Shown: positions 33,135 through 52,247 of the stretch, one piece after another
Layout of the letters: every line of letters begins with the position of its first letter
Position numbering within the stretch: position 1 is the stretch's first letter
IMG/VR virus record: IMGVR_UViG_3300033463_000196
Span: 1-52,247 of that record
Origin: a virus
Length of the DNA stretch: 52,247 nt
Direction: 5' to 3' (one strand)
Translations under genes and position numbers: made by a program
The notes under the pieces: model-generated
Database searches by the model: none
What the model was told of the DNA's origin: nothing
The model's input: only the letters and a program-made list of their open reading frames with translations

Positions 33135-33152
33135 GCCCGGCTTTCGCCGGGC
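33135..33152 (-). promoter_or_regulatory. GC stem with GAAA tetraloop 3' of VR2 (DGR target-site hairpin candidate)
   Basis: Coding strand GCCCGGC-GAAA-GCCGGGC, 38 nt beyond the VR2 3' boundary. Confidence 0.6.
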
Positions 33153-33178: not shown

Positions 33179-33907
33179 CTAACTAATAAATGCTGAGACG
33201 GGCCGAACGTGAAGCGTGTACGAAGCCTTAGTGCCGCTGAAGGCGCCGCCGTAGTTGAGGTACAGAAGCCAGGCGCCCGACGCGCTGAGCTCGGTAGAAG
33301 TCCAATACCAATCGCCTTTAATCGGGTCGCTGCCTATCAGTTCCAAAGCCTGATTAAGTGCCTTACGATTCAGATAGATAAGGTACATTTCGCCCAAACT
33401 TGGGATATACTCGCCGTCGGCCAAAACGATTTCCTTATTAAGTCCAATGGCTTTCAGGTGTTCGGTATTGGCTTTGCCGTTCCAATCGGCTACCGCGTCC
33501 AAATAGTTATCTTTGTAACCGTCGTATTTGGTTATGTCCTTACCTGACGTTAGCGTAATCTCTTCGCCATCTGCTGCGTCGTGCAAAGCCACTTTGAGGC
33601 TACGGCTACCCCACTTAATACCTACGTATCTTACTTGGCTACCGTCTAAGCTGCCATCTACGCCCATATCGGGAATGAACGGTACTACGCTGCCGTCGGC
33701 CAAAACGTAGTAGATGCCATCGGGTAACTCTTCCATGATACCGCAAGGGCCGTTGGCTATTCCATCCCTTACCGGGGCCTTTGGCTTTGCTATCGGCTCT
33801 TCGGTTATCCAATCGAAAGCGGCCTTACAAAAGTCTACCGTTTCCGGCTTTTCGATGTTTGCGAACTTATCCAAAAGTTGCAACTTTAATTCTTGGTTCT
33901 CTGTCAT
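33179..33907 (-). CDS. DGR variable protein 2 (C-terminal DUF1566/C-type-lectin-like variable domain)
   Basis: 242 aa. C-terminus PSLGEMYLIY...WYWTSTELSASGAWLLYLNYGGAFSGTKASYTLHVRPVSAFIS carries VR2. Confidence 0.85.
   Translation of the reverse strand: MTENQELKLQLLDKFANIEKPETVDFCKAAFDWITEEPIAKPKAPVRDGIANGPCGIMEELPDGIYYVLADGSVVPFIPDMGVDGSLDGSQVRYVGIKWGSRSLKVALHDAADGEEITLTSGKDITKYDGYKDNYLDAVADWNGKANTEHLKAIGLNKEIVLADGEYIPSLGEMYLIYLNRKALNQALELIGSDPIKGDWYWTSTELSASGAWLLYLNYGGAFSGTKASYTLHVRPVSAFIS
33191..33297 (-). repeat. DGR variable repeat VR2
   Basis: 107 nt, colinear with the TR. 21 differences, all at TR plus-strand T (coding-strand A). Confidence 0.9.
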
Positions 33908-44977: not shown

Positions 44978-45562
44978 TTAAAACTTTCTTTTCAGGTACA
45001 GGAACAAAAGCCAAAGCAAAGCCGCAATGCAGCATAGCCCGCCAATCTTTGCTAAGATAGTCTGATACCAAACGGGCTTTTCTGCCTTTGTCTCTTTTTC
45101 TGTGTGGCTCGCGTGGCTCTCGTTATTGGTTATGCCGTTTTGCGTATCGGTGTGCATTTGCGTTACTTCGTTGGTCTGACTGATTCCGTTTTGTTGGTTG
45201 GTGTTCGTTGTCAGGTTTCCCGTAATGCTCTGCACCCCGGTTAGCGTAATGTTACCTGCGCTGTCAATGCTTACCGTGCCGCCACCGTCCACAAAGTTTA
45301 TTGTCGTGTTCTGCTCTGTGGTCGTAGTGGTCTGCGTCGTATCGGTAAACGTCTGCGTGGCTGTCAGGCTGTCCGTTTCCACTTGGGTAGTATCTACAAT
45401 AGATACCGTGCTGTTTTCGTCTGTAACGGCCTTGTGTGTCCTGCACCCGCCTAATACCAGGCACAACAGGGCAAAGGCCATCAGGAACAAATACGTACTG
45501 CAACCGTTACTATTGTTTTGCCTGAATTGGTGATACCAATACCTGTTATACTCGTTTCTCAT
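44978..45562 (-). CDS. Unimolecular spanin candidate (lipoprotein signal plus C-terminal TM)
   Basis: Lipobox LVLGGC after a hydrophobic N-terminus, T/Q/N-rich middle, C-terminal TM ILAKIGGLCCIAALLWLLFLYL. The start overlaps the endolysin stop. Confidence 0.5.
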   Translation of the reverse strand: MRNEYNRYWYHQFRQNNSNGCSTYLFLMAFALLCLVLGGCRTHKAVTDENSTVSIVDTTQVETDSLTATQTFTDTTQTTTTTEQNTTINFVDGGGTVSIDSAGNITLTGVQSITGNLTTNTNQQNGISQTNEVTQMHTDTQNGITNNESHASHTEKETKAEKPVWYQTILAKIGGLCCIAALLWLLFLYLKRKF

Positions 45563-46137
45563 ACGCCCGAAAATTTGATGTCGTTAAGACGGTTAAGCCA
45601 CCCGGTACGATACTTATAGTTCTTTGGCCGGGCTTTGCAAATGCGCTCAATATAGGCTAAACGCTCTTTCTTCAACAGGTCGAAAAGTTGGCGGGGGTCG
45701 CGGGCGTTAATGGCCGCTAACGTCTTGGGGCCTACTACGCCGTCGGCTGTTACGCCTATAGCCTTTTGCGGTACGGTTATCCCGTAACTACCGCTCGCCC
45801 AAACGAAATCGACAAGCATCAAGGCAATAGAGGCGTTAGTAATTTGGTCGGCTTTCCACCTATCCCAAAACATCGTTTTAAGGATTGCAAGCCAATCGGC
45901 GTACTTAATGGCCTTTAAGGCCGCTACGGATGGTTTCGGGTAGCCTTTCCTACGGCAATATTCCGTATAGGTTGCCAACGTAACGCCGCACATCGTGGCC
46001 CCTCCCAAATCGTCGGGGTCGTTTGCAAATCCGCGTTTCTTCGCTTTCTCAAAAAGCTGCTCGTTTGTCAGGGTTGCCCCTGTCGTGCCGGTTTCCCATT
46101 TCAGGATAAAAGGCACAATGCTTTCTACTTTAGCCAT
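45559..46137 (-). CDS. Endolysin (GH108-like lysozyme plus peptidoglycan-binding domain)
   Basis: ILKWETG...FANDPDDLGGATMCGVT matches the GH108 E...D.GG.T.GI signature. ATG at 46137 (MAKVESIV...). Confidence 0.7.
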   Translation of the reverse strand: MAKVESIVPFILKWETGTTGATLTNEQLFEKAKKRGFANDPDDLGGATMCGVTLATYTEYCRRKGYPKPSVAALKAIKYADWLAILKTMFWDRWKADQITNASIALMLVDFVWASGSYGITVPQKAIGVTADGVVGPKTLAAINARDPRQLFDLLKKERLAYIERICKARPKNYKYRTGWLNRLNDIKFSGV

Positions 46138-46154
46138 AATCTGCGTTTTAGGGG

Positions 46155-46517
46155 TTAATATCCGTTTTGTGGTTCTCTTTGTGCGCACTTAGGGCGCACA
46201 CATCGAAAACGCTGTAAGTCCAATTCTGTTTGGGCGTTCTTTTTCATCAACTCGAAATAGTCATCTTGCACTTTGCGCAAGCGGTCTGTTTGGTCGCAAA
46301 ACCGCTCTTCTTTCTCCTTTAGTTGGGTCTGTAAAAACTCTATGGTTTCTTTCAAAACTCCAAACTCTACGCTATCGGCCTCGGCCTCTGCTTTATCTGC
46401 TTCGGCTCTCTCCTTGCGTTTGTTGGTACGAATATTAAGCATATACTTAATAAGTTCCCAACCGCCAATAGTGCCGCTTATAGTGGCCGCTAATTCAAGT
46501 ATCGTTGTATAGTCCAT
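46155..46517 (-). CDS. Lysis-cassette protein, holin candidate (N-terminal hydrophobic segment plus coiled coil)
   Basis: 120 aa. TILELAATISGTIGGWELI followed by a charged coiled coil. Immediately upstream of the endolysin. Confidence 0.3.
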   Translation of the reverse strand: MDYTTILELAATISGTIGGWELIKYMLNIRTNKRKERAEADKAEAEADSVEFGVLKETIEFLQTQLKEKEERFCDQTDRLRKVQDDYFELMKKNAQTELDLQRFRCVRPKCAQREPQNGY

Positions 46518-46521
46518 TGTC

Positions 46522-46671
46522 TCATTTCTTATATAGTTCTATTACTATGTCGTTATCGCGTTGCTCAATCAAAACCACATACCGGGTTTCTAATAAGTGC
46601 AAAAGGCCCATGTCTATTACATCAACGCGCAATGTAACTGGGTCTTTGGGCTGTACTTCAATAATCGCCAT
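46522..46671 (-). CDS. Small hypothetical protein
   Basis: 49-aa ORF (MAIIEVQPKDPVTLRVDVIDMG...) that exactly fills the RT-holin gap. Its start overlaps the RT 3' end. Hand translated. Confidence 0.3.
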   Translation of the reverse strand: MAIIEVQPKDPVTLRVDVIDMGLLHLLETRYVVLIEQRDNDIVIELYKK

Positions 46672-47848
46672 CACGTATTCTTTTATATGTCTGTATTCTC
46701 TTCTTATATTTGTTCTTTAGTGCCACTATCTCATAGCGGCCTTTTATGTAGATATATTCGTATGCAGGTCGCTCTATCATGCCTAAGACTTTCTTACGCA
46801 TACCGTATTCGTTGTGGTGTCGTAACAAGCCCAAATAACTGTTTATAGAGCAAACAGCGTGCTCAACTTGCCGTAATGTCTTGGCGTTGTTTAACCGCCT
46901 GACGGCTGCAATAAAGTTGGTTATTGTGCGGTTGCAACAATACGACGTTTTGGGCTTTACGACGGCCCCGGTAAACTCTACGCCCTTGGTGTAGTGCTGA
47001 AAGTAGAATTTCTTAGGATTCAGGGTTAGGCCAAATTCGGCCAACTTATCCCGTATCAATGGCACGGCGTTAAGTAGTACGGCCTTATCTTGGTGTATGC
47101 AATAGAAATCATCTACGTAGCGGCCATGATACTTAATGCCTATTTCTTCCAAAAACCAATCAAATTCATTTAACAGGAAATTGGCGAATAGTTGCGCAAA
47201 CAGGTTGCCGATAGCAACGCCTTTGCCCTCGCCGTTAGTGAATAGCGATTTATTGGCGGGTAGGTAATCCCAATAATGCGCCGGGCTGTGTTTCTCGCAA
47301 TTCTTTTCGGGGCAATGTAAAACGACTATTCGGCAAAGGTAGCGCAAATCGTCTATGTCGCTGCCGGTATAGTATTGAGTAATAAAGCGGTCTATCAGGT
47401 CGGCTAACAGGGCTTTGTCGATGCTCATAAAAAAGCCCTGTAGGTCTAATTTCATAATCCAACAAGTCCGGGTATAGTTCTCGCTGCAATCCCTAATATC
47501 CTGCTTTAGAATATTGATACCGTAAAGCTGCCCTTTCTCCTTACGGCAATTAAAAGTACGCGGACTAAACACCAACTCAAAAAGCGGCTCTAACCGTAGG
47601 GCTATATAGTGGTGTACTATTCTATCTTCAAAGGAGGCGGCAAACACTTCACGATACCGGGGCCGCGTTACGACAAAGCAAATAGACTTTCCGGGCTGAT
47701 AGACGCGGTTGTTAATCCTATCGCGTAAGGCGATAAGTTTAGTTTCGTAGTCCATTTCGTAGACTATCGCGCTTGCCGTGTGGCGTTTGCGCCGTCGGCA
47801 ATCGTAATACGCTTTTAAAAGTCCATCAGTCGTTACCATATCTGACAA
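46658..47848 (-). CDS. DGR reverse transcriptase
   Basis: 396 aa. GRYVDDFYCIH (YxDD catalytic box), LDLQGFFMSID (motif 2-like), VAIGNLFAQLFANF (resembles the DGR-RT IGxxxSQ motif). TTG at 47848, or ATG at 47839. Confidence 0.9.
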   Translation of the reverse strand: MSDMVTTDGLLKAYYDCRRRKRHTASAIVYEMDYETKLIALRDRINNRVYQPGKSICFVVTRPRYREVFAASFEDRIVHHYIALRLEPLFELVFSPRTFNCRKEKGQLYGINILKQDIRDCSENYTRTCWIMKLDLQGFFMSIDKALLADLIDRFITQYYTGSDIDDLRYLCRIVVLHCPEKNCEKHSPAHYWDYLPANKSLFTNGEGKGVAIGNLFAQLFANFLLNEFDWFLEEIGIKYHGRYVDDFYCIHQDKAVLLNAVPLIRDKLAEFGLTLNPKKFYFQHYTKGVEFTGAVVKPKTSYCCNRTITNFIAAVRRLNNAKTLRQVEHAVCSINSYLGLLRHHNEYGMRKKVLGMIERPAYEYIYIKGRYEIVALKNKYKKRIQTYKRIRDGDY

Positions 47849-47882
47849 TGTTTATATACTACGTTTCTGCTTCCGTAAGAAG

Positions 47883-47989
47883 TGCTGAGACGGGCCGAAC
47901 GTGATTCGTGTTCGATGCCTTAGTGTTGTTGTTGGCGTTGCCGTTGTTGAGGTTCAGATTCCAGGCGTTCGTCGCGCTGTTCTCGGTTG
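47883..47989 (-). repeat. DGR template repeat (TR), non-coding
   Basis: 107 nt between avd and RT. In the VR frame it reads PTENSATNAWNLNLNNGNANNNTKASNTNHVRPVSA (12 AAY codons, 37 adenines). No ORF covers it. Confidence 0.9.
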
Positions 47990-48079
47990 GCTCGCAATCT
48001 GTGGCCTATTAACTTGCTCTTAACCGTAAATGACGGTATAAGCCCCATTTATTACGGAAACTTGCACTCTCGGTTAGTC

Positions 48080-48469
48080 TTAACTTTCCGATTCCGGCTT
48101 ACTCGCTTTTGTAAGTGAGTTTTTCCACGCTGTACTTTGCTTTCCTATTGCGTCCATCAGTTCAATGATATGTGCGTGCCGCCCTATTCCCTTAATCCAA
48201 CGTCTTTCGCCCGCTACCCTGATTAGGGTTTTAAGCGTCTCGAATTTGGCTTTGAAACTCATTAAGTTTTGTACCCTGCCCGTCTTATCCATGTAGGCCG
48301 CTGCATCTAATTCTATCAGGCTAACAGATAGTCTTTGCATTTCTGCGCCGATAGTAAACTTATAGTCACGCGGAAAGTTGGGCGTAACGTCTAATATCTC
48401 ATTGAGTAACGCCCTGCAATCTAAGTATAGTTGCGTAGTAGATACTAACTTAATCGGTTTGTCTGCCAT
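48080..48469 (-). CDS. avd: DGR accessory variability determinant (Avd)
   Basis: 129-aa basic, helix-rich ORF in the canonical position between the target gene and the TR. Confidence 0.7.
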   Translation of the reverse strand: MADKPIKLVSTTQLYLDCRALLNEILDVTPNFPRDYKFTIGAEMQRLSVSLIELDAAAYMDKTGRVQNLMSFKAKFETLKTLIRVAGERRWIKGIGRHAHIIELMDAIGKQSTAWKNSLTKASKPESES

Positions 48470-48490
48470 TTCTGAAAATTACGTTGTAAT

Positions 48491-48512
48491 GTTCCCGGCT
48501 TTCGCCGGGAAC
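48491..48512 (-). promoter_or_regulatory. GC stem with GAAA tetraloop 3' of VR1 (DGR target-site hairpin candidate)
   Basis: Coding strand GTTCCCGGC-GAAA-GCCGGGAAC, 32 nt beyond the VR1 3' boundary. Confidence 0.6.
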
Positions 48513-48532
48513 TAAAGGTTAAAGAGTAAGAA

Positions 48533-49297
48533 TTAAGCAATAAATGCTGAGACGGGCCGAACGTGATACGTGGTCGATGCCTTAGGGTTGCGGTTGGCGC
48601 TGCCGAGGAGGCCCAGAAGCCAGGCGTTCGTCGCGCTGAACTCGGTCGAAGTCCAATAACCGGCCTCTGCCAACTGCGTTGCGCCACTAATCAGCGAAAG
48701 CGCGTAGTTAATCTTTGTCATGTTGGCGTAAATCATCATCATTTCGCCCAAAGATGGTAGCCACCACTTACCGGCTGTCAGGCCCTTAGAGTTGGCGTTT
48801 ACGCGGCTGTAGTTCGCACAATATCCGGGGGCGTAGGCGTTGCTACTACATTCGGCGTGCGTAATCTGTGCCGTCGTGTTTGCTTTACCGGCCCAATCGT
48901 TCAAAGCCGTAACGCGGTCTGACGTGGTTACGCCGCCACCGCTAACGGCTGCGCTACTCCATGTCATAGACGATTCGGTAGGCGCAACGATAAGGATTTT
49001 GCCACCCTCTACGATGGCTACGCCGTCGGCCACTTCGCCGCCACTCTGTAGGCTTGGCCACTTGTGGGGTTTTACCATTACGGGGTAATCGTCTTGTTTA
49101 CGATGGTACATAATGAAAACGCCGTCCATCTGTACGTTTTGGTCTACACCGCCATTCATAGCCGCTTTCAGGTTTGCAAGCGAAATGGGGATTAACTTAC
49201 CGCTGCTATCCCGCATAAGGATTCGGTCGGTGCTGTTGACGGTCGTAACGTCTGTTACGCTGCTGTCATTCAATTTTTTTGTTTGCTTAACTGCCAT
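48533..49297 (-). CDS. DGR variable protein 1 (C-terminal DUF1566/C-type-lectin-like variable domain)
   Basis: 254 aa. WWLPSLGEMMMIY...GYWTSTEFSATNAWLLGLLGSANRNPKASTTYHVRPVSAFIA carries VR1. Confidence 0.85.
   Translation of the reverse strand: MAVKQTKKLNDSSVTDVTTVNSTDRILMRDSSGKLIPISLANLKAAMNGGVDQNVQMDGVFIMYHRKQDDYPVMVKPHKWPSLQSGGEVADGVAIVEGGKILIVAPTESSMTWSSAAVSGGGVTTSDRVTALNDWAGKANTTAQITHAECSSNAYAPGYCANYSRVNANSKGLTAGKWWLPSLGEMMMIYANMTKINYALSLISGATQLAEAGYWTSTEFSATNAWLLGLLGSANRNPKASTTYHVRPVSAFIA
48545..48648 (-). repeat. DGR variable repeat VR1
   Basis: 104 nt. 15 substitutions relative to the TR, all at TR plus-strand T, plus loss of one TTG (coding CAA/AAC register) unit. Confidence 0.9.
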
Positions 49298-49321
49298 AAT
49301 ACTTAAAATTTAATGGGGTTA

Positions 49322-49726
49322 TTAAATGTGTAAATACTTAATCCATGCGAAACGCCTACGGTTGGTAAGGTAGGTTAAATCCTTTTCGTTGGCGTAGGCT
49401 TCCCGCTCTGTCGAAATGTTACGGTATGCCTTTTTGGTGTTGCGGTACTGACAAAGCCGGTACAGGTATTCGATACCGTACCACCAAAAGAATAGAGGCA
49501 CAAAGAGCAACGCCCAAAGCCCGACAAAGACGTAGCCGATAGCGGCTAATACGATGCCAACTAAAAGCATTTCCTTTTGTTGTTCCGCGTGTATGTGTTC
49601 GTGGTTGTTTGCCACCGTGTTATAATGGCTTGCCGCGTTATTCCTGACGAATATAAACGGCCACAAACACATAGCGATAAATCCCTTAAACGGGATAGTG
49701 TCGTTAAAGATTACTTTTGTTTTCAT
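49322..49726 (-). CDS. Membrane protein with HExxH motif (putative zinc metallopeptidase-like)
   Basis: ATG at 49726 (MKTKVIFNDT...). NNHEHIHAEQQ followed by two hydrophobic helices (MLLVGIVLAAIGYVFVGLWALLFVPLFFWWY). Confidence 0.4.
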   Translation of the reverse strand: MKTKVIFNDTIPFKGFIAMCLWPFIFVRNNAASHYNTVANNHEHIHAEQQKEMLLVGIVLAAIGYVFVGLWALLFVPLFFWWYGIEYLYRLCQYRNTKKAYRNISTEREAYANEKDLTYLTNRRRFAWIKYLHI

Positions 49727-49737
49727 ACGCTGTTGGT

Positions 49738-52247
49738 TTATAGGTAAATCCAATCGTTAAAGTTCATCAAGAAGAAATTAAACGCGCCGTCGTTTCGGCT
49801 ATCATCGTCTGCCGTCTGAACGGTTATAGACGTTTTCGTTTGCGATTTTACGGACGCATATAGCGGATTACTACCGCTGTCAATAACGCCGTAGCCGCAT
49901 ACCATTACAAAAACGTGTCCTGCATCTGCATACCAATTATTATTACTCCATGATAAGGTATAAATACCTTGGCCGTCTCTTGTAACTGACATTGTGCTAC
50001 CGTCGAAAGTATGATAAGATACGCTTGCCCCGCTACTTGAACCTGTAACGCGGCCAACGGCTAACATCTTCATGTGGTGGCCGTAGCGGGATTCTGTGCC
50101 TAAGTCTATTCGCTTTAGCACAATCCAACCGTAGAAACTATTATTATCGCCGTAACCTAACAACTCTACGGCCTCGCGGCTTAACTTGATAGTAGATTTC
50201 TGTATGCCATCTTCATAGAAATATTTACCCGTCGGGGCTGTTAGTTGAGCGTACCCGGATGCCGTCGAATAACTACCGTTCCAATAGTAGTTAGTGATAA
50301 CTACCTTACGGCCTGACTGGTCGGTAGTCCACGGCAAAGCGTAATCGGATGCCGACGCGCTGTAAACGGCTATGTTGTCCGAAAAGTCATTGCCAAACGT
50401 ACCGCCACGTCCTAAGTACGTGAACGGGCTACGCACACCGCCTCTTACATATACGTCGCCCTGATATGTTTTGCCGGTAAGCAAATCAAGCGCGTAGTAT
50501 GGGGCAAAATTCTTTTCTTCCAAAGTAACGGTGTTAACCGTACCTGATAGCCCGTTAGGGTTGTATATCTCCAAATAATACGTACCGCTTTCCGTTGGCT
50601 TAATGTAGCCTGCGCGTGTTACCGCCGACGTGCTGTTAATCAATACAGGCGAATAGGTAGTGCCGGTAGACGTGTTGCGTACTCTTATGTAATAGCCTGT
50701 TGAACTGCTGCCGTAGCCTTTGGCCGATAAGTAATAAACTTTTCCGGCCTCCAAAGTTAGCGTAGTCCATGACTTAGTAGTGTTACTGCTTGTAAATGAG
50801 TAATCGCTACCATAAGCATACTTTGCTAAGTATTTGCCTAACGGGTTGTTTGGATTAAACAGGGAATAAGCGGTAATACCCTGATAGGTTGCGCCGTTAT
50901 CGTAGGCCGTACCGTCTATAGTTCCGTTGGTGCTTATCATCCAATCGCCGCTAATTCTTGCACTACCAAAATAGCCGTGTTGGGCAAACAGGATATTAGC
51001 GGCTACTAATCCCATTTTCGTAGATAACTGCCAAAGGCCGTTATTGGTGTCGTAGGTACTACCCGGATAGTTTGAGGCGGTTTTTGTGTGCGTCTTAATA
51101 CACTTGTAGTAATTGCCGTTATATACTACAAAATCTTCGTAAGGCTCACCGTCTGCGCCTTTGTAAAATTGAAAATCCAACTCGGCTTGCGTCCAATCCT
51201 GCGGGCCGCGTAATCCGGGGCCTCTATAGCCTCGCGGGCCTTGGCTACCCGTGCCGCCCGTTGGCCCCTGTGGGCCTTGGGGGCCGGTGTTGCCCTGCTT
51301 CTTAACGATAATCTCACATTTGGCTAAGTACGCCTGCCCTGCCGGGTTTGTGTCGGTGTACGCGCTGCTAAACATGAAAATTACTACCGCGTCGTAGCCT
51401 GTATAGACGTTGGCCTTTATGTTTACGCCATCATCAAAGCCGTTATTTATGTAGGTACTATTATACATCGTTAAGAGCGCGTAAGTAGTACCCGTGCGGG
51501 AATAGACGGCAAAACGGCAAGTATGGGCCTGACGTGCCGCCGTTCCTGCCTTACGATAAAAGGCTGCTGAACAATTAAGCGTAGCACTATCAGCGTCGGA
51601 CGCTATAGTTACGTTTCCTACGGTGCAAGCGATTTCGTAGGTTACGCCGTCGTTACCATTTGGCCCCTGTGGGCCTTCTGGCCCTGTATCTCCATAAACA
51701 CCTATAATAACGGGGTCTGTGTTTGCCGTACTACCGTCTGTATAGGTTACGGTCTCATAGTTCCAAAGGTATTTCTTTGTTGCCGTAACGCTCTGAACGC
51801 TCGTAGTCCATCCCGACGTAGAGCGCGTAACGCCTGACGATGCAGACGTAGCAAGGTAGTATTCAGTTATAGACGAAATGCCTACGCCGGTATCACCAAA
51901 GCGGCCAATGATAGCGGGCGTTGTGTCTACGTGTGTACCGTCTGTGTAGTTTATGCGCTCGTAGTTCCAAAGGTACTTTTTCGTCTTGGTCATTGTGGCC
52001 GCTGTAGCCGTCGGGTCTGTAGTCCATCCCGTCGTAGATGTAGTAACGCCTGAACTTGACGAACTCGCTAAGTAGTATTCGACTACCGACGAAATACCGT
52101 TGCCGGTATCGCCCTTGTCACCATAAACACCTATAATAACGGGGTCTGTGTTTGCCGTACTACCGTCTGTATAGGTTACGGTCTCATAGTTCCAAAGGTA
52201 TTTCTTTGTTGCCGTAACGCTCTGAACGCTCGTAGTCCATCCCGACG
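49738..52247 (-). CDS. Tail fibre protein, C-terminal segment (collagen-like Gly-X-Y tracts plus large C-terminal domain)
   Basis: The frame is open from 52247 down to the stop at 49738. I translated 51994-52247 and found no stop. GDTGPEGPQGPNGNDG and GNTGPQGPQGPTGGTGSQGPRGYRGPGLRGPQ are collagen-like. Confidence 0.75.
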   Translation of the reverse strand, partial: SGWTTSVQSVTATKKYLWNYETVTYTDGSTANTDPVIIGVYGDKGDTGNGISSVVEYYLASSSSSGVTTSTTGWTTDPTATAATMTKTKKYLWNYERINYTDGTHVDTTPAIIGRFGDTGVGISSITEYYLATSASSGVTRSTSGWTTSVQSVTATKKYLWNYETVTYTDGSTANTDPVIIGVYGDTGPEGPQGPNGNDGVTYEIACTVGNVTIASDADSATLNCSAAFYRKAGTAARQAHTCRFAVYSRTGTTYALLTMYNSTYINNGFDDGVNIKANVYTGYDAVVIFMFSSAYTDTNPAGQAYLAKCEIIVKKQGNTGPQGPQGPTGGTGSQGPRGYRGPGLRGPQDWTQAELDFQFYKGADGEPYEDFVVYNGNYYKCIKTHTKTASNYPGSTYDTNNGLWQLSTKMGLVAANILFAQHGYFGSARISGDWMISTNGTIDGTAYDNGATYQGITAYSLFNPNNPLGKYLAKYAYGSDYSFTSSNTTKSWTTLTLEAGKVYYLSAKGYGSSSTGYYIRVRNTSTGTTYSPVLINSTSAVTRAGYIKPTESGTYYLEIYNPNGLSGTVNTVTLEEKNFAPYYALDLLTGKTYQGDVYVRGGVRSPFTYLGRGGTFGNDFSDNIAVYSASASDYALPWTTDQSGRKVVITNYYWNGSYSTASGYAQLTAPTGKYFYEDGIQKSTIKLSREAVELLGYGDNNSFYGWIVLKRIDLGTESRYGHHMKMLAVGRVTGSSSGASVSYHTFDGSTMSVTRDGQGIYTLSWSNNNWYADAGHVFVMVCGYGVIDSGSNPLYASVKSQTKTSITVQTADDDSRNDGAFNFFLMNFNDWIYL
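51692..51888. repeat. 197-bp perfect repeat inside the fibre gene (second copy spans the window junction)
   Basis: 51692-51818 equals 52121-52247, and 51762-51888 equals 1-127. Both copies encode the same ~66-aa fibre repeat. Confidence 0.9.

Follow-up and report, generated by a model that had tools for sequence, protein, structure and literature searches.

The minus-strand cassette at positions 46658-49297 raises the question of whether it forms a complete diversity-generating retroelement (DGR), and, if so, which genes it rewrites and whether it still operates. It lies in a window of 52,247 nt, the whole of the IMG/VR virus record analysed here (IMGVR_UViG_3300033463_000196), which represents a ~52-kb temperate phage of the rumen with Prevotella as its probable host. 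The cassette is a genuine, complete DGR, and a functional-looking DGR of a temperate tailed phage is the best explanation of the evidence, with a probability of roughly 0.93. On the minus strand, the components follow the order given in the original prediction: the target gene VP1 (ORF 48533-49297), the gene of the accessory variability determinant Avd (ORF 48080-48469), a non-coding 107-nt template repeat (TR) and the reverse transcriptase gene (RT; ORF 46658-47848). A tail-fiber-like gene (49738-51993) and an endolysin gene (45559-46188) lie on either side, as expected from the proposed setting between fiber and lysis genes. The claim of completeness also stands, since RT, Avd, non-coding TR, adenine-only changes between the TR and its variable repeat (VR), an IMH-like boundary and hairpins are all present.

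The TR (47883..47989, minus strand) reads PTENSATNAWNLNLNNGNANNNTKASNTNHVRPVSA in the frame of the target (47989-47883), in which no ORF was called. Its 37 adenines and 12 AAY codons agree with the numbers predicted. VR1 (48545..48648, minus strand, 104 nt), which makes up the last ~35 codons of ORF 48533-49297, differs from the TR by exactly 15 substitutions, each at a TR adenine as had been claimed, and the chance probability of such a distribution is (37/107)^15 = 1.2e-7. By contrast, the statement that no other base differs did not survive gapped alignment, which revealed that VR1 is 3 nt short, a single AAC codon being absent where the TR has the tract CTC-AAC-AAC-GGC. This shortfall was already implied by the earlier coordinates, with a TR of 107 nt and a VR1 of 104 nt. 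In addition, a second full-length VR, overlooked in the earlier reading of the cassette, is located at 33191..33297 (minus strand, 107 nt), in the last ~35 codons of ORF 33179-33907. VR2 is collinear with the TR, has no indel, and carries 21 substitutions, all at TR adenines (chance probability 2e-10); the joint chance probability for 15/15 substitutions in VR1 and 21/21 in VR2 is ~2.5e-17. Both VRs occupy the 3' ends of their target genes, and the TR sits beside the RT gene, 43 nt upstream of its ATG. The present genome is one assembled sequence, so a single state each of VR1 and VR2 is represented.

At their 3' ends, the TR and VR1 show the predicted identity followed by abrupt divergence. 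The IMH-like boundary of VR1 (48533..48565, minus strand) consists of a 21-nt GC-rich block shared with the TR (CACGTTCGGCCCGTCTCAGCA, 48565-48545) and a VR1-specific flank, TTTATTGCTTAA (48544-48533), which includes the stop codon. Immediately after the block, the VR continues with TTTATT, compared to CTTCTT in the TR; the TTTATT flank is common to VR1, VR2 and the VRs of relatives, whereas the TRs carry CTTCTT-type flanks. Each VR is followed by a hairpin: GTTCCCGGC-GAAA-GCCGGGAAC (48491..48512, minus strand) lies 32 nt downstream of VR1, and GCCCGGC-GAAA-GCCGGGC (33135..33152, minus strand) lies 38 nt downstream of VR2. The core CCCGGCGAAAGCCGGG (CCCGGC-GAAA-GCCGGG) has exactly two copies in the window, one after each VR. 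With GC stems of 7-9 bp and GAAA loops, both hairpins fit the stem and loop of the published DGR hairpin (GC stem of 7-10 bp and GRNA loop, situated 4-34 bp from the VR; Guo 2011), the distance of 38 nt from VR2 being slightly above the reported range. Neither appeared among the predictions of a terminator scan, and no T-run follows hairpin 48491..48512; lacking a T-run, the post-VR hairpins are not canonical intrinsic terminators. Judged from its sequence, hairpin 48491..48512 would belong to the DGR target-recognition hairpin/cruciform type. An IMH/IMH*-type boundary and GC-rich GRNA-tetraloop hairpins of putative function are present.

Comparison with relatives revealed that, of 54 related IMG/VR loci, about 50 keep the VR-Avd-TR-RT order and the adenine-biased mismatches, as do seven genome loci. 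Lineage-specific non-adenine changes of the TR (GACG/GACC; CACG/CGAG/CAGAG) are copied in the VR1 and VR2 of the same lineage, demonstrating a flow of information from TR to VR. Among 40 VP1 homologues of 77-96% identity, columns of >2 bits entropy occur only at the TR AAY codons, and the VR alone varies in length. The heterogeneity at TR adenines and the TR-to-VR transfer that characterize retrohoming are therefore seen comparatively, across relatives. This flow of information is established, together with the anatomy, the adenine specificity and the protein family membership. The contig with an identical RT (P0001) is a 1.8-kb fragment that contains no VR.

The missing codon could be a sign that the rewriting of VR1 is not recent. 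A DGR in decay or at present inactive, with no retrohoming at least at VR1 and with VR differences that are fossils, would account for a VR1 shorter than its TR and for the one non-adenine TR/VR mismatch found in relative L084, but such a cassette is hard to reconcile with intact ORFs throughout, a catalytic YVDD, two perfect hairpins and 3' blocks, a fully collinear VR2 with adenine changes only, and cognate VRs that follow the lineage-specific TR changes. Moreover, active DGRs are known to yield codon indels opposite AAC as a by-product; indels were reported for ~7% of DGRs, with 74% of them adjoining AAC (PMC5758913), and they recur at AAC in six independent relatives (L004, L006, L014, L026, L046 and L056). 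We therefore regard inactivity as improbable, and the functional-looking DGR remains the preferred reading.

The RT (46658..47839, minus strand) has 393 residues when read from the ATG at 47839. The span originally proposed, 47848-46658, corresponds to a mechanical ORF of 396 residues starting from a TTG at 47848; the ORF holds, whereas its start does not. The ATG at 47839 is most likely the true start, since the 120 listed database homologues are all 369-395 residues long, mostly 393. Both predicted motifs, IGNLFAQ (residues 210-216) and GRYVDDF (YVDD at 241-244), are found in the protein, corresponding to the [I/L/V]GxxxSQ and YxDD motifs of the DGR clade, to which the RT is assigned by searches and motifs. 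IGNLFAQ departs from the canonical IGxxxSQ, with A in place of S; this variant is shared by 118 of the 120 close homologues among the listed matches, and IGNLFSQ occurs in the more distant RTs L021 and L050. Profile searches gave 62 bits for Pfam RVT_1 and 257 bits for PHROG 1423. Against the PDB, the best match is 8ub7 at 1.1e-21, the next being 4.5e-5. The 328-residue chain 8ub7_A is Bordetella phage bRT, as indicated by YMDD at residues 213-216 and by R74, I181 and Q187 at their published positions; the present RT keeps R, I, Q and YVDD aligned to these residues.

A generic RVT_1 domain and weak matches such as PADLOC RT_UG4 (68.7 bits) leave room for an RT derived from a retron, a group II intron or an Abi/DRT defense system, in which case the TR and VRs would be an ordinary repeat among paralogues. 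Nevertheless, the scores of the RT fall far below the cut-offs of the models concerned (TIGR04416, 77 bits against 300; St85 retron model, 35 against 235; Drt2-5 models, <=34 bits against 200-550), and the check proposed earlier, namely whether the profile favors retrons or group II introns over DGRs, points to bRT, the best solved relative by 16 orders of magnitude. Furthermore, a bona fide Avd gene adjoins the RT gene, Rfam detected neither a group II intron nor a retron RNA within 46000-50000 (E <= 1), and ordinary divergence cannot produce adenine-only substitutions at p ~2.5e-17, making this origin very improbable. DNA-level gene conversion among the three repeats, without reverse transcription, is just as implausible: it would suit three copies of a ~107-nt repeat whose 3' blocks are long and identical, but it would not keep one copy pure A at the variable positions while two coding copies vary, with this directionality kept in ~50 related loci.

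The accessory protein of a DGR, either Avd or HRDC, is here Avd (48080..48469, minus strand, 129 residues). The gene, singled out by its size in the original prediction, scores 87.2 bits against Pfam bAvd (cut-off 40), 67.7 bits against PHROG 3206 "Avd protein of DGR", and 42.6 bits against NCBIfam DivGenRetAVD, under the equivalog cut-off of 80; a phmmer search of Avd against the PDB yielded no match. Between avd and the TR lies a conserved 90-nt non-coding leader (47990..48079, minus strand) with a hairpin at 48037-48023, and a 43-nt spacer (47840..47882, minus strand) separates the TR from the RT, carrying the IMH*-like flank CTTCTT. The leader strand UUCCGUAA (48059-48052) pairs with UUACGGAA (47878-47871) in the spacer, forming a duplex that brackets the TR. 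In alignment A4, both sides have changed in 8 of 13 pairs and 91.7% of the cells are paired, compared to 26-47% in slid controls; none of 500 shuffles reached as high. Long-range pairings proposed by RNAalifold, of the leader with the TR interior and of the TR with the RT-coding region, lacked compensatory changes and were set aside. A priming duplex of the conserved AAAUGGG leader segment with the TR 3' end, sought by eye, was dropped as covariation was absent. An Rfam search of 46000-50000 at E <= 1 returned only a chance snoRNA-like match, and no RT-associated or DGR RNA motif. In this family of Bacteroidota phages, the DGR RNA seems to be arranged unlike that of BPP-1, and the combination of a 90-nt leader, a TR-bracketing duplex and only 43 nt downstream suggests that the priming and Avd-binding elements may sit elsewhere.

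VP1 (48533..49297, minus strand) consists of 254 residues with a C-terminal DUF1566/Lcl_C-like variable domain. The proposed DUF1566/C-type-lectin identity of the target stands at the level of sequence profiles: VP1 itself scores 30.2 bits against Pfam Lcl_C, under the cut-off of 34.9, whereas its homologues carry PF07603, and Lcl_C is matched by 91 of 142 target-family members. The target-family profile A2 matches the Lcl C-terminal domain (PDB 8q4e) at 2.8e-5 and 4eps at 0.12; a phmmer search of VP1 against the PDB gave only 4eps, with E = 0.05. Folding VP1 had been suggested as a check of whether the variable residues lie together on a single face. The AlphaFold2 model of VP1 (91-sequence alignment) has a mean pLDDT of 52.8, compared to 61.3 for VP2 (142 sequences), and with the VR below 50 in both, the VP1 model is too poor for such a judgment. 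Foldseek searches of the PDB with these low-pLDDT models gave nothing at E <= 0.001 and were both disregarded.

VP2 (33179..33907, minus strand, 242 residues) is the second, non-adjacent target gene, situated in the replication module between polA and the sliding-clamp gene, 14.7 kb from the cassette. In its C-terminal domain it shares 38% identity with VP1, and Pfam gave no match to VP2. Judging from these sequences, the DGR rewrites the tips of two small putative binding proteins, whose diversified DUF1566/Lcl_C-like C-terminal domains most likely form ligand-binding surfaces. As it adjoins the tail-fiber genes, VP1 is probably a host-recognition protein. VP2 may be an early replication-module protein rather than a receptor-binding protein of the virion. 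Its gene comes immediately after polA and in the same orientation, a synteny kept in the Bacuni phages, and the protein lacks a signal peptide. If so, its hypervariable lectin-like tip might bind a variable molecule of the host or of a competitor in or on the infected cell, with a role in, e.g., superinfection exclusion or anti-defense. That VP2 is a non-virion replication-module protein and, at the same time, that the DGR RNA is organized unlike that of BPP-1 is a combination we put forward tentatively and consider rather unlikely to hold as a whole.

For the enzymology of the DGR, its mode of targeting and its role in the biology of the phage, we infer the following scheme. The avd-TR-RT transcript would supply the TR RNA, which RT and Avd would copy into cDNA with misincorporation opposite template adenines, as suggested by the homology to bRT and Avd and by the adenine-only pattern. 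The cDNA would then replace the 3' ends homologous to it in two genes of the phage, the adjacent VP1 and the distant VP2, guided by the shared GC-rich 3' block, the VR-specific IMH-like flank and the GC-stem/GAAA hairpin after each VR. The 12 AAY codons alone could generate ~15^12, or ~1e14, stop-free protein variants, and occasional slippage on AAC tracts would add or remove a codon, as in the present VR1.

Compared to the prototype mtd-avd-TR-brt of Bordetella phage BPP-1, the present DGR shares the gene order, Avd, a bRT-homologous RT with the aligned R74, I181, Q187 and YxDD conserved, adenine-specific mutagenesis, a GC-rich IMH-type 3' block and a GAAA-loop hairpin after the VR; the duplex of the upstream and downstream TR flanks also resembles the cPRT-Stop duplex. 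They differ in the target, which is of the DUF1566/CLec2 class here against Mtd/CLec1 in BPP-1, in the presence of two targets here, and in the IGNLFAQ motif, which is IGSLTSQ in BPP-1. Moreover, the TR of BPP-1 follows avd and is succeeded by a 140-nt spacer, whereas here a 90-nt structured leader precedes the TR and a 43-nt spacer follows. The leader and the covarying TR-bracketing duplex, with a downstream spacer far too short for BPP-1-type RNA elements, provide a lead for specialists. Among DGRs with CLec2/DUF1566 targets (category "d" of Wu et al. 2018, e.g. Legionella LdtA), the VR likewise overlaps a DUF1566/Lcl_C-type C-terminal domain, in short targets with little beyond it. LdtA, however, is a surface lipoprotein of an ICE element, whereas the present element is phage-borne and its targets lack lipoprotein signals. 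The survey of Wu et al. 2018 also includes both AAC-opposite codon indels and non-adjacent targets within a phage genome.

The closest system is found in the Bacteroides uniformis phages Bacuni F1/F2/F4 (MT635598, MT806185 and MT806186; Hedzet et al. 2021), for which the same DGR family and two-target layout are already published (PMC8143477). These phages were found by protein-level searches; when the cassette was compared with the INPHARED phages by megablast, there was no match. Their orthologous RTs are 66-70% identical over the full length, and the order is again DUF1566 target, Avd, TR and RT, after which come lysis genes and a recombinase. The TR is near-identical, the VR forms the last ~35 codons, a GC-stem/GAAA hairpin follows the VR, and in Bacuni_F1 the replication module contains another DUF1566 target immediately downstream of polA. 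By contrast, the present genome is ~52 kb rather than 40 kb, its VP2 is only 44-46% identical, its VR1 has a one-codon deletion, and it comes from metagenomes of the rumen, its host probably being Prevotella as opposed to a human-gut Bacteroides. VR differences among the Bacuni phages have been linked to host range (PMC8143477). AAC-tract codon indels, targets that lie nearby without being adjacent, the hairpin and targets of the DUF1566 class are likewise all published, and the general understanding of DGRs is unchanged. The present element adds a rumen, Prevotella-associated member to a family characterized so far only in human-gut Bacteroides phages, with dozens of related loci in which the TR writes into two targets per lineage, one of them conserved inside the replication module, which is a further lead for specialists. 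A genome scan also recovered a prophage of Prevotella sp. P3-122 (L076) with an RT 78% identical to the present one; a related prophage in this strain is mentioned by Hedzet et al. 2021 (PMC8143477).

The element at 46658~49297 on the minus strand is, with a probability of about 0.93, a diversity-generating retroelement (DGR) working by adenine-mutagenic retrohoming. It comprises the target gene VP1 (48533~49297, 254 aa), an Avd gene (48080~48469, 129 aa), an intergenic template repeat (TR; 47989~47883, 107 nt with 37 adenines) and a reverse transcriptase (RT) gene (46658~47848), which encodes 396 aa from the mechanical TTG start. As the database homologues are nearly all 393 aa long, translation likely starts at the ATG at 47839. 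The variable repeat VR1 occupies the 3′ end of the VP1 ORF (48648~48545). A gapped alignment of TR against VR1 revealed exactly 15 substitutions, as originally counted, and all 15 fall on TR adenines, with a chance probability of 1.2e-7. Two further points of the original description hold as well, the 12 AAY codons in the translated TR and the 21-nt 3′ block identical in the two repeats. The claim that no other base differs needs correction, as VR1 has a 3-nt gap that removes one AAC codon opposite CTC-AAC-AAC-GGC.

A search for TR blocks on either strand, with adenines treated as wildcards, identified a third TR copy, termed VR2, at 33297~33191. VR2 is collinear with TR without any indel, and its 21 substitutions all reside at adenines (21/21), giving a joint chance probability of ~2.5e-17 for the adenine-only substitutions of VR1 and VR2. 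It forms the last ~35 codons of a second target gene, VP2 (33179~33907, 242 aa), which shares 38% identity with VP1 over its C-terminal 150 residues. VP2 is flanked by a family-A DNA polymerase (34774~36729) and a sliding-clamp homologue (31191~32387). A target in the replication module right downstream of polA, apart from the DGR cassette, is present both here (33179~33907) and in phage Bacuni_F1 (4438~5112); this conserved placement is odd for VP2, a presumed receptor-binding protein.

At the 3′ side of the shared block CACGTTCGGCCCGTCTCAGCA, both VR1 and VR2 continue with TTTATT, compared to CTTCTT in TR. Each VR is followed by a hairpin, GTTCCCGGC-GAAA-GCCGGGAAC at 48512~48491, 32 nt past VR1, and GCCCGGC-GAAA-GCCGGGC at 33152~33135, 38 nt past VR2. 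The 52-kb window has exactly two copies of the 16-nt hairpin core, one after VR1 and one after VR2, and no T-run was found at its 3′ side. Retrohoming of Bordetella phage BPP-1, which carries the prototype DGR, needs a hairpin that is conserved in phage DGRs, with a GC stem of 7-10 bp and a GRNA loop, at 4-34 bp from VR in the published cases (PMC3240598). Both hairpins in the window match this element in the GC stem and the GRNA loop.

The RT matches Pfam RVT_1, and the best hit among solved structures is chain 8ub7_A (1.1e-21, compared to 4.5e-5 for the next best). This chain was identified as the Bordetella phage RT (bRT), because it has 328 aa, YMDD at 213~216, and R74, I181 and Q187 at the positions known from the literature. 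The aligned R, I and Q, in addition to YVDD, are all kept in the window RT. Its motif 4 is IGNLFAQ, with an S-to-A change that 118 of 120 close homologues share; two loci of greater distance have IGNLFSQ. Assignment of the RT to a group II intron, retron or Drt system is disfavored by scores far under the curated cut-offs of these models, and PADLOC returned generic RT matches only. The 129-aa protein exceeds the Pfam bAvd cut-off (87 bits vs 40) and matches the PHROG entry “Avd protein of DGR”, but lies under the stricter NCBIfam equivalog cut-off. The original prediction of a DGR was correct.

VP1 scores 30.2 bits against Pfam Lcl_C (formerly DUF1566), just short of the 34.9 cut-off, and VP2 alone gave no Pfam match. 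Lcl_C is matched by 91 of the 142 members of the target family, and a profile of this family hits 8q4e, a solved structure of the Lcl C-terminal domain, at 2.8e-5. The AlphaFold2 models of VP1 and VP2 are both poor across the VR and fold searches on them were uninformative, so we infer a C-type-lectin fold of the two targets at the sequence level.

Relatives of the RT were found in IMG/VR (55) and in GTDB genomes (11). The VR-Avd-TR-RT layout with adenine-biased mismatches recurs in ~50 of the 54 IMG/VR loci tested, in addition to seven genome loci. A few non-adenine TR positions vary by lineage (GACG/GACC, and CACG/CGAG/CAGAG near the 3′ end), and the variant of each lineage is present in its own VR1, and in VR2 where available, which is what TR-to-VR copying would predict. 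One locus of 99% RT identity (L084) has a TR/VR pair (1081~1186 and 1743~1848) with a non-adenine mismatch, GACCAAC in TR vs GGCGAAC in VR, and the 5′ part of this VR matches the window-type TR, suggesting partial (3′-biased) homing or recombination between lineages. Among 40 VP1 homologues of 77-96% identity, the mean column entropy is 0.32 bits upstream of VR and 0.97 bits inside it; the columns above 2 bits fall on TR AAY codons, and length variation is confined to AAC tracts. In-frame TR/VR indels arise independently in loci L004, L006, L014, L026, L046 and L056, with differences of +3, +6 or -3 nt always in AAC/AAY tracts, and such in-frame differences explain the VP1 homologue lengths of 250-258 aa. 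Indels were reported in about 7% of DGRs, 74% of them beside AAC, and were proposed to result from RT slippage (PMC5758913). The window DGR seems to be intact, with recent activity in its lineage.

The 90-nt leader between avd and TR (47990~48079) is highly conserved across relatives. Covariation supports a leader hairpin (48037~48023) and an 8-bp duplex that brackets TR, formed by UUCCGUAA (48059~48052) and UUACGGAA (47878~47871). In the two helices, 8 of 13 pairs have changes on both sides and 91.7% of cells are paired, a level reached by none of 500 shuffles and compared to 26-47% in slid controls. This bracketing duplex is similar to the one termed “cPRT Stop” in the BPP-1 DGR RNA, which likewise pairs upstream with downstream sequence (bioRxiv 10.1101/2023.10.23.563531). 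The downstream spacer differs in length: the window has just 43 nt, most of them variable, between TR and RT, compared to 140 nt in BPP-1, where the spacer carries the primer and protein-binding elements (bioRxiv 10.1101/2023.10.23.563531). No Rfam match was found for this leader and duplex RNA. The heptamer AACCGAG at the TR 5′ start (47982~47988) has a second copy just past the avd stop (48069~48075), 87 nt upstream, and relatives retain both.

Among cultured phages, Bacuni F1, F2 and F4 of Bacteroides uniformis come closest, with RT identities of 66-70%. They share with the window the DGR gene order, a nearly identical TR, the GAAA hairpin and a second DUF1566 target right after polA. The published Bacuni DGR has two targets, adenine substitutions and VRs made up of the final 35 codons, and host range differs among these phages in step with VR (PMC8143477). 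Targets elsewhere in the same phage genome, not adjacent to the cassette, and DUF1566 (CLec2) targets both form standard categories in a large DGR survey (PMC5758913). The window DGR therefore belongs to an already described family. It stands out, mildly, in just two respects: VP2 is placed in the replication module, and the RNA architecture is upstream-heavy; published relatives share both traits.

The window holds the entire genome of a tailed phage, which encodes terminase, portal, major head and tail proteins, a primase-helicase, polA, an exonuclease and a tyrosine integrase, in addition to a GH108 endolysin and collagen-like fibre genes. Contigs nearly identical to it, 51.5-54.7 kb long, are present in sheep rumen and omasum data. 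Four near-identical contigs (L072, L074, L075 and L080) sit in GTDB MAGs labelled Elusimicrobiaceae, Elusimicrobium or Candidatus Saccharibacteria; they probably represent mis-binned phage genomes and not evidence of those hosts. A related prophage with 78% RT identity resides in an isolate, Prevotella sp. P3-122, and the homology of this prophage to the Bacuni phages was already reported (PMC8143477). Between the tail-fibre gene and VP1, a 143-aa ORF (49322~49753, minus strand) combines hydrophobic stretches with an HEHIH (HExxH) motif; it matches PHROG 15610 “protease” at 112 bits, and a Pfam search gave no match. Modules of ~100-200 nt are repeated with 60-99% identity at both ends of the window (1~367 and 51681~52247), inside tail-fibre-like genes with collagen G-X-Y runs, a pattern suggestive of repeated N-terminal modules in the fibres and of a genome that is complete and circularly permuted.
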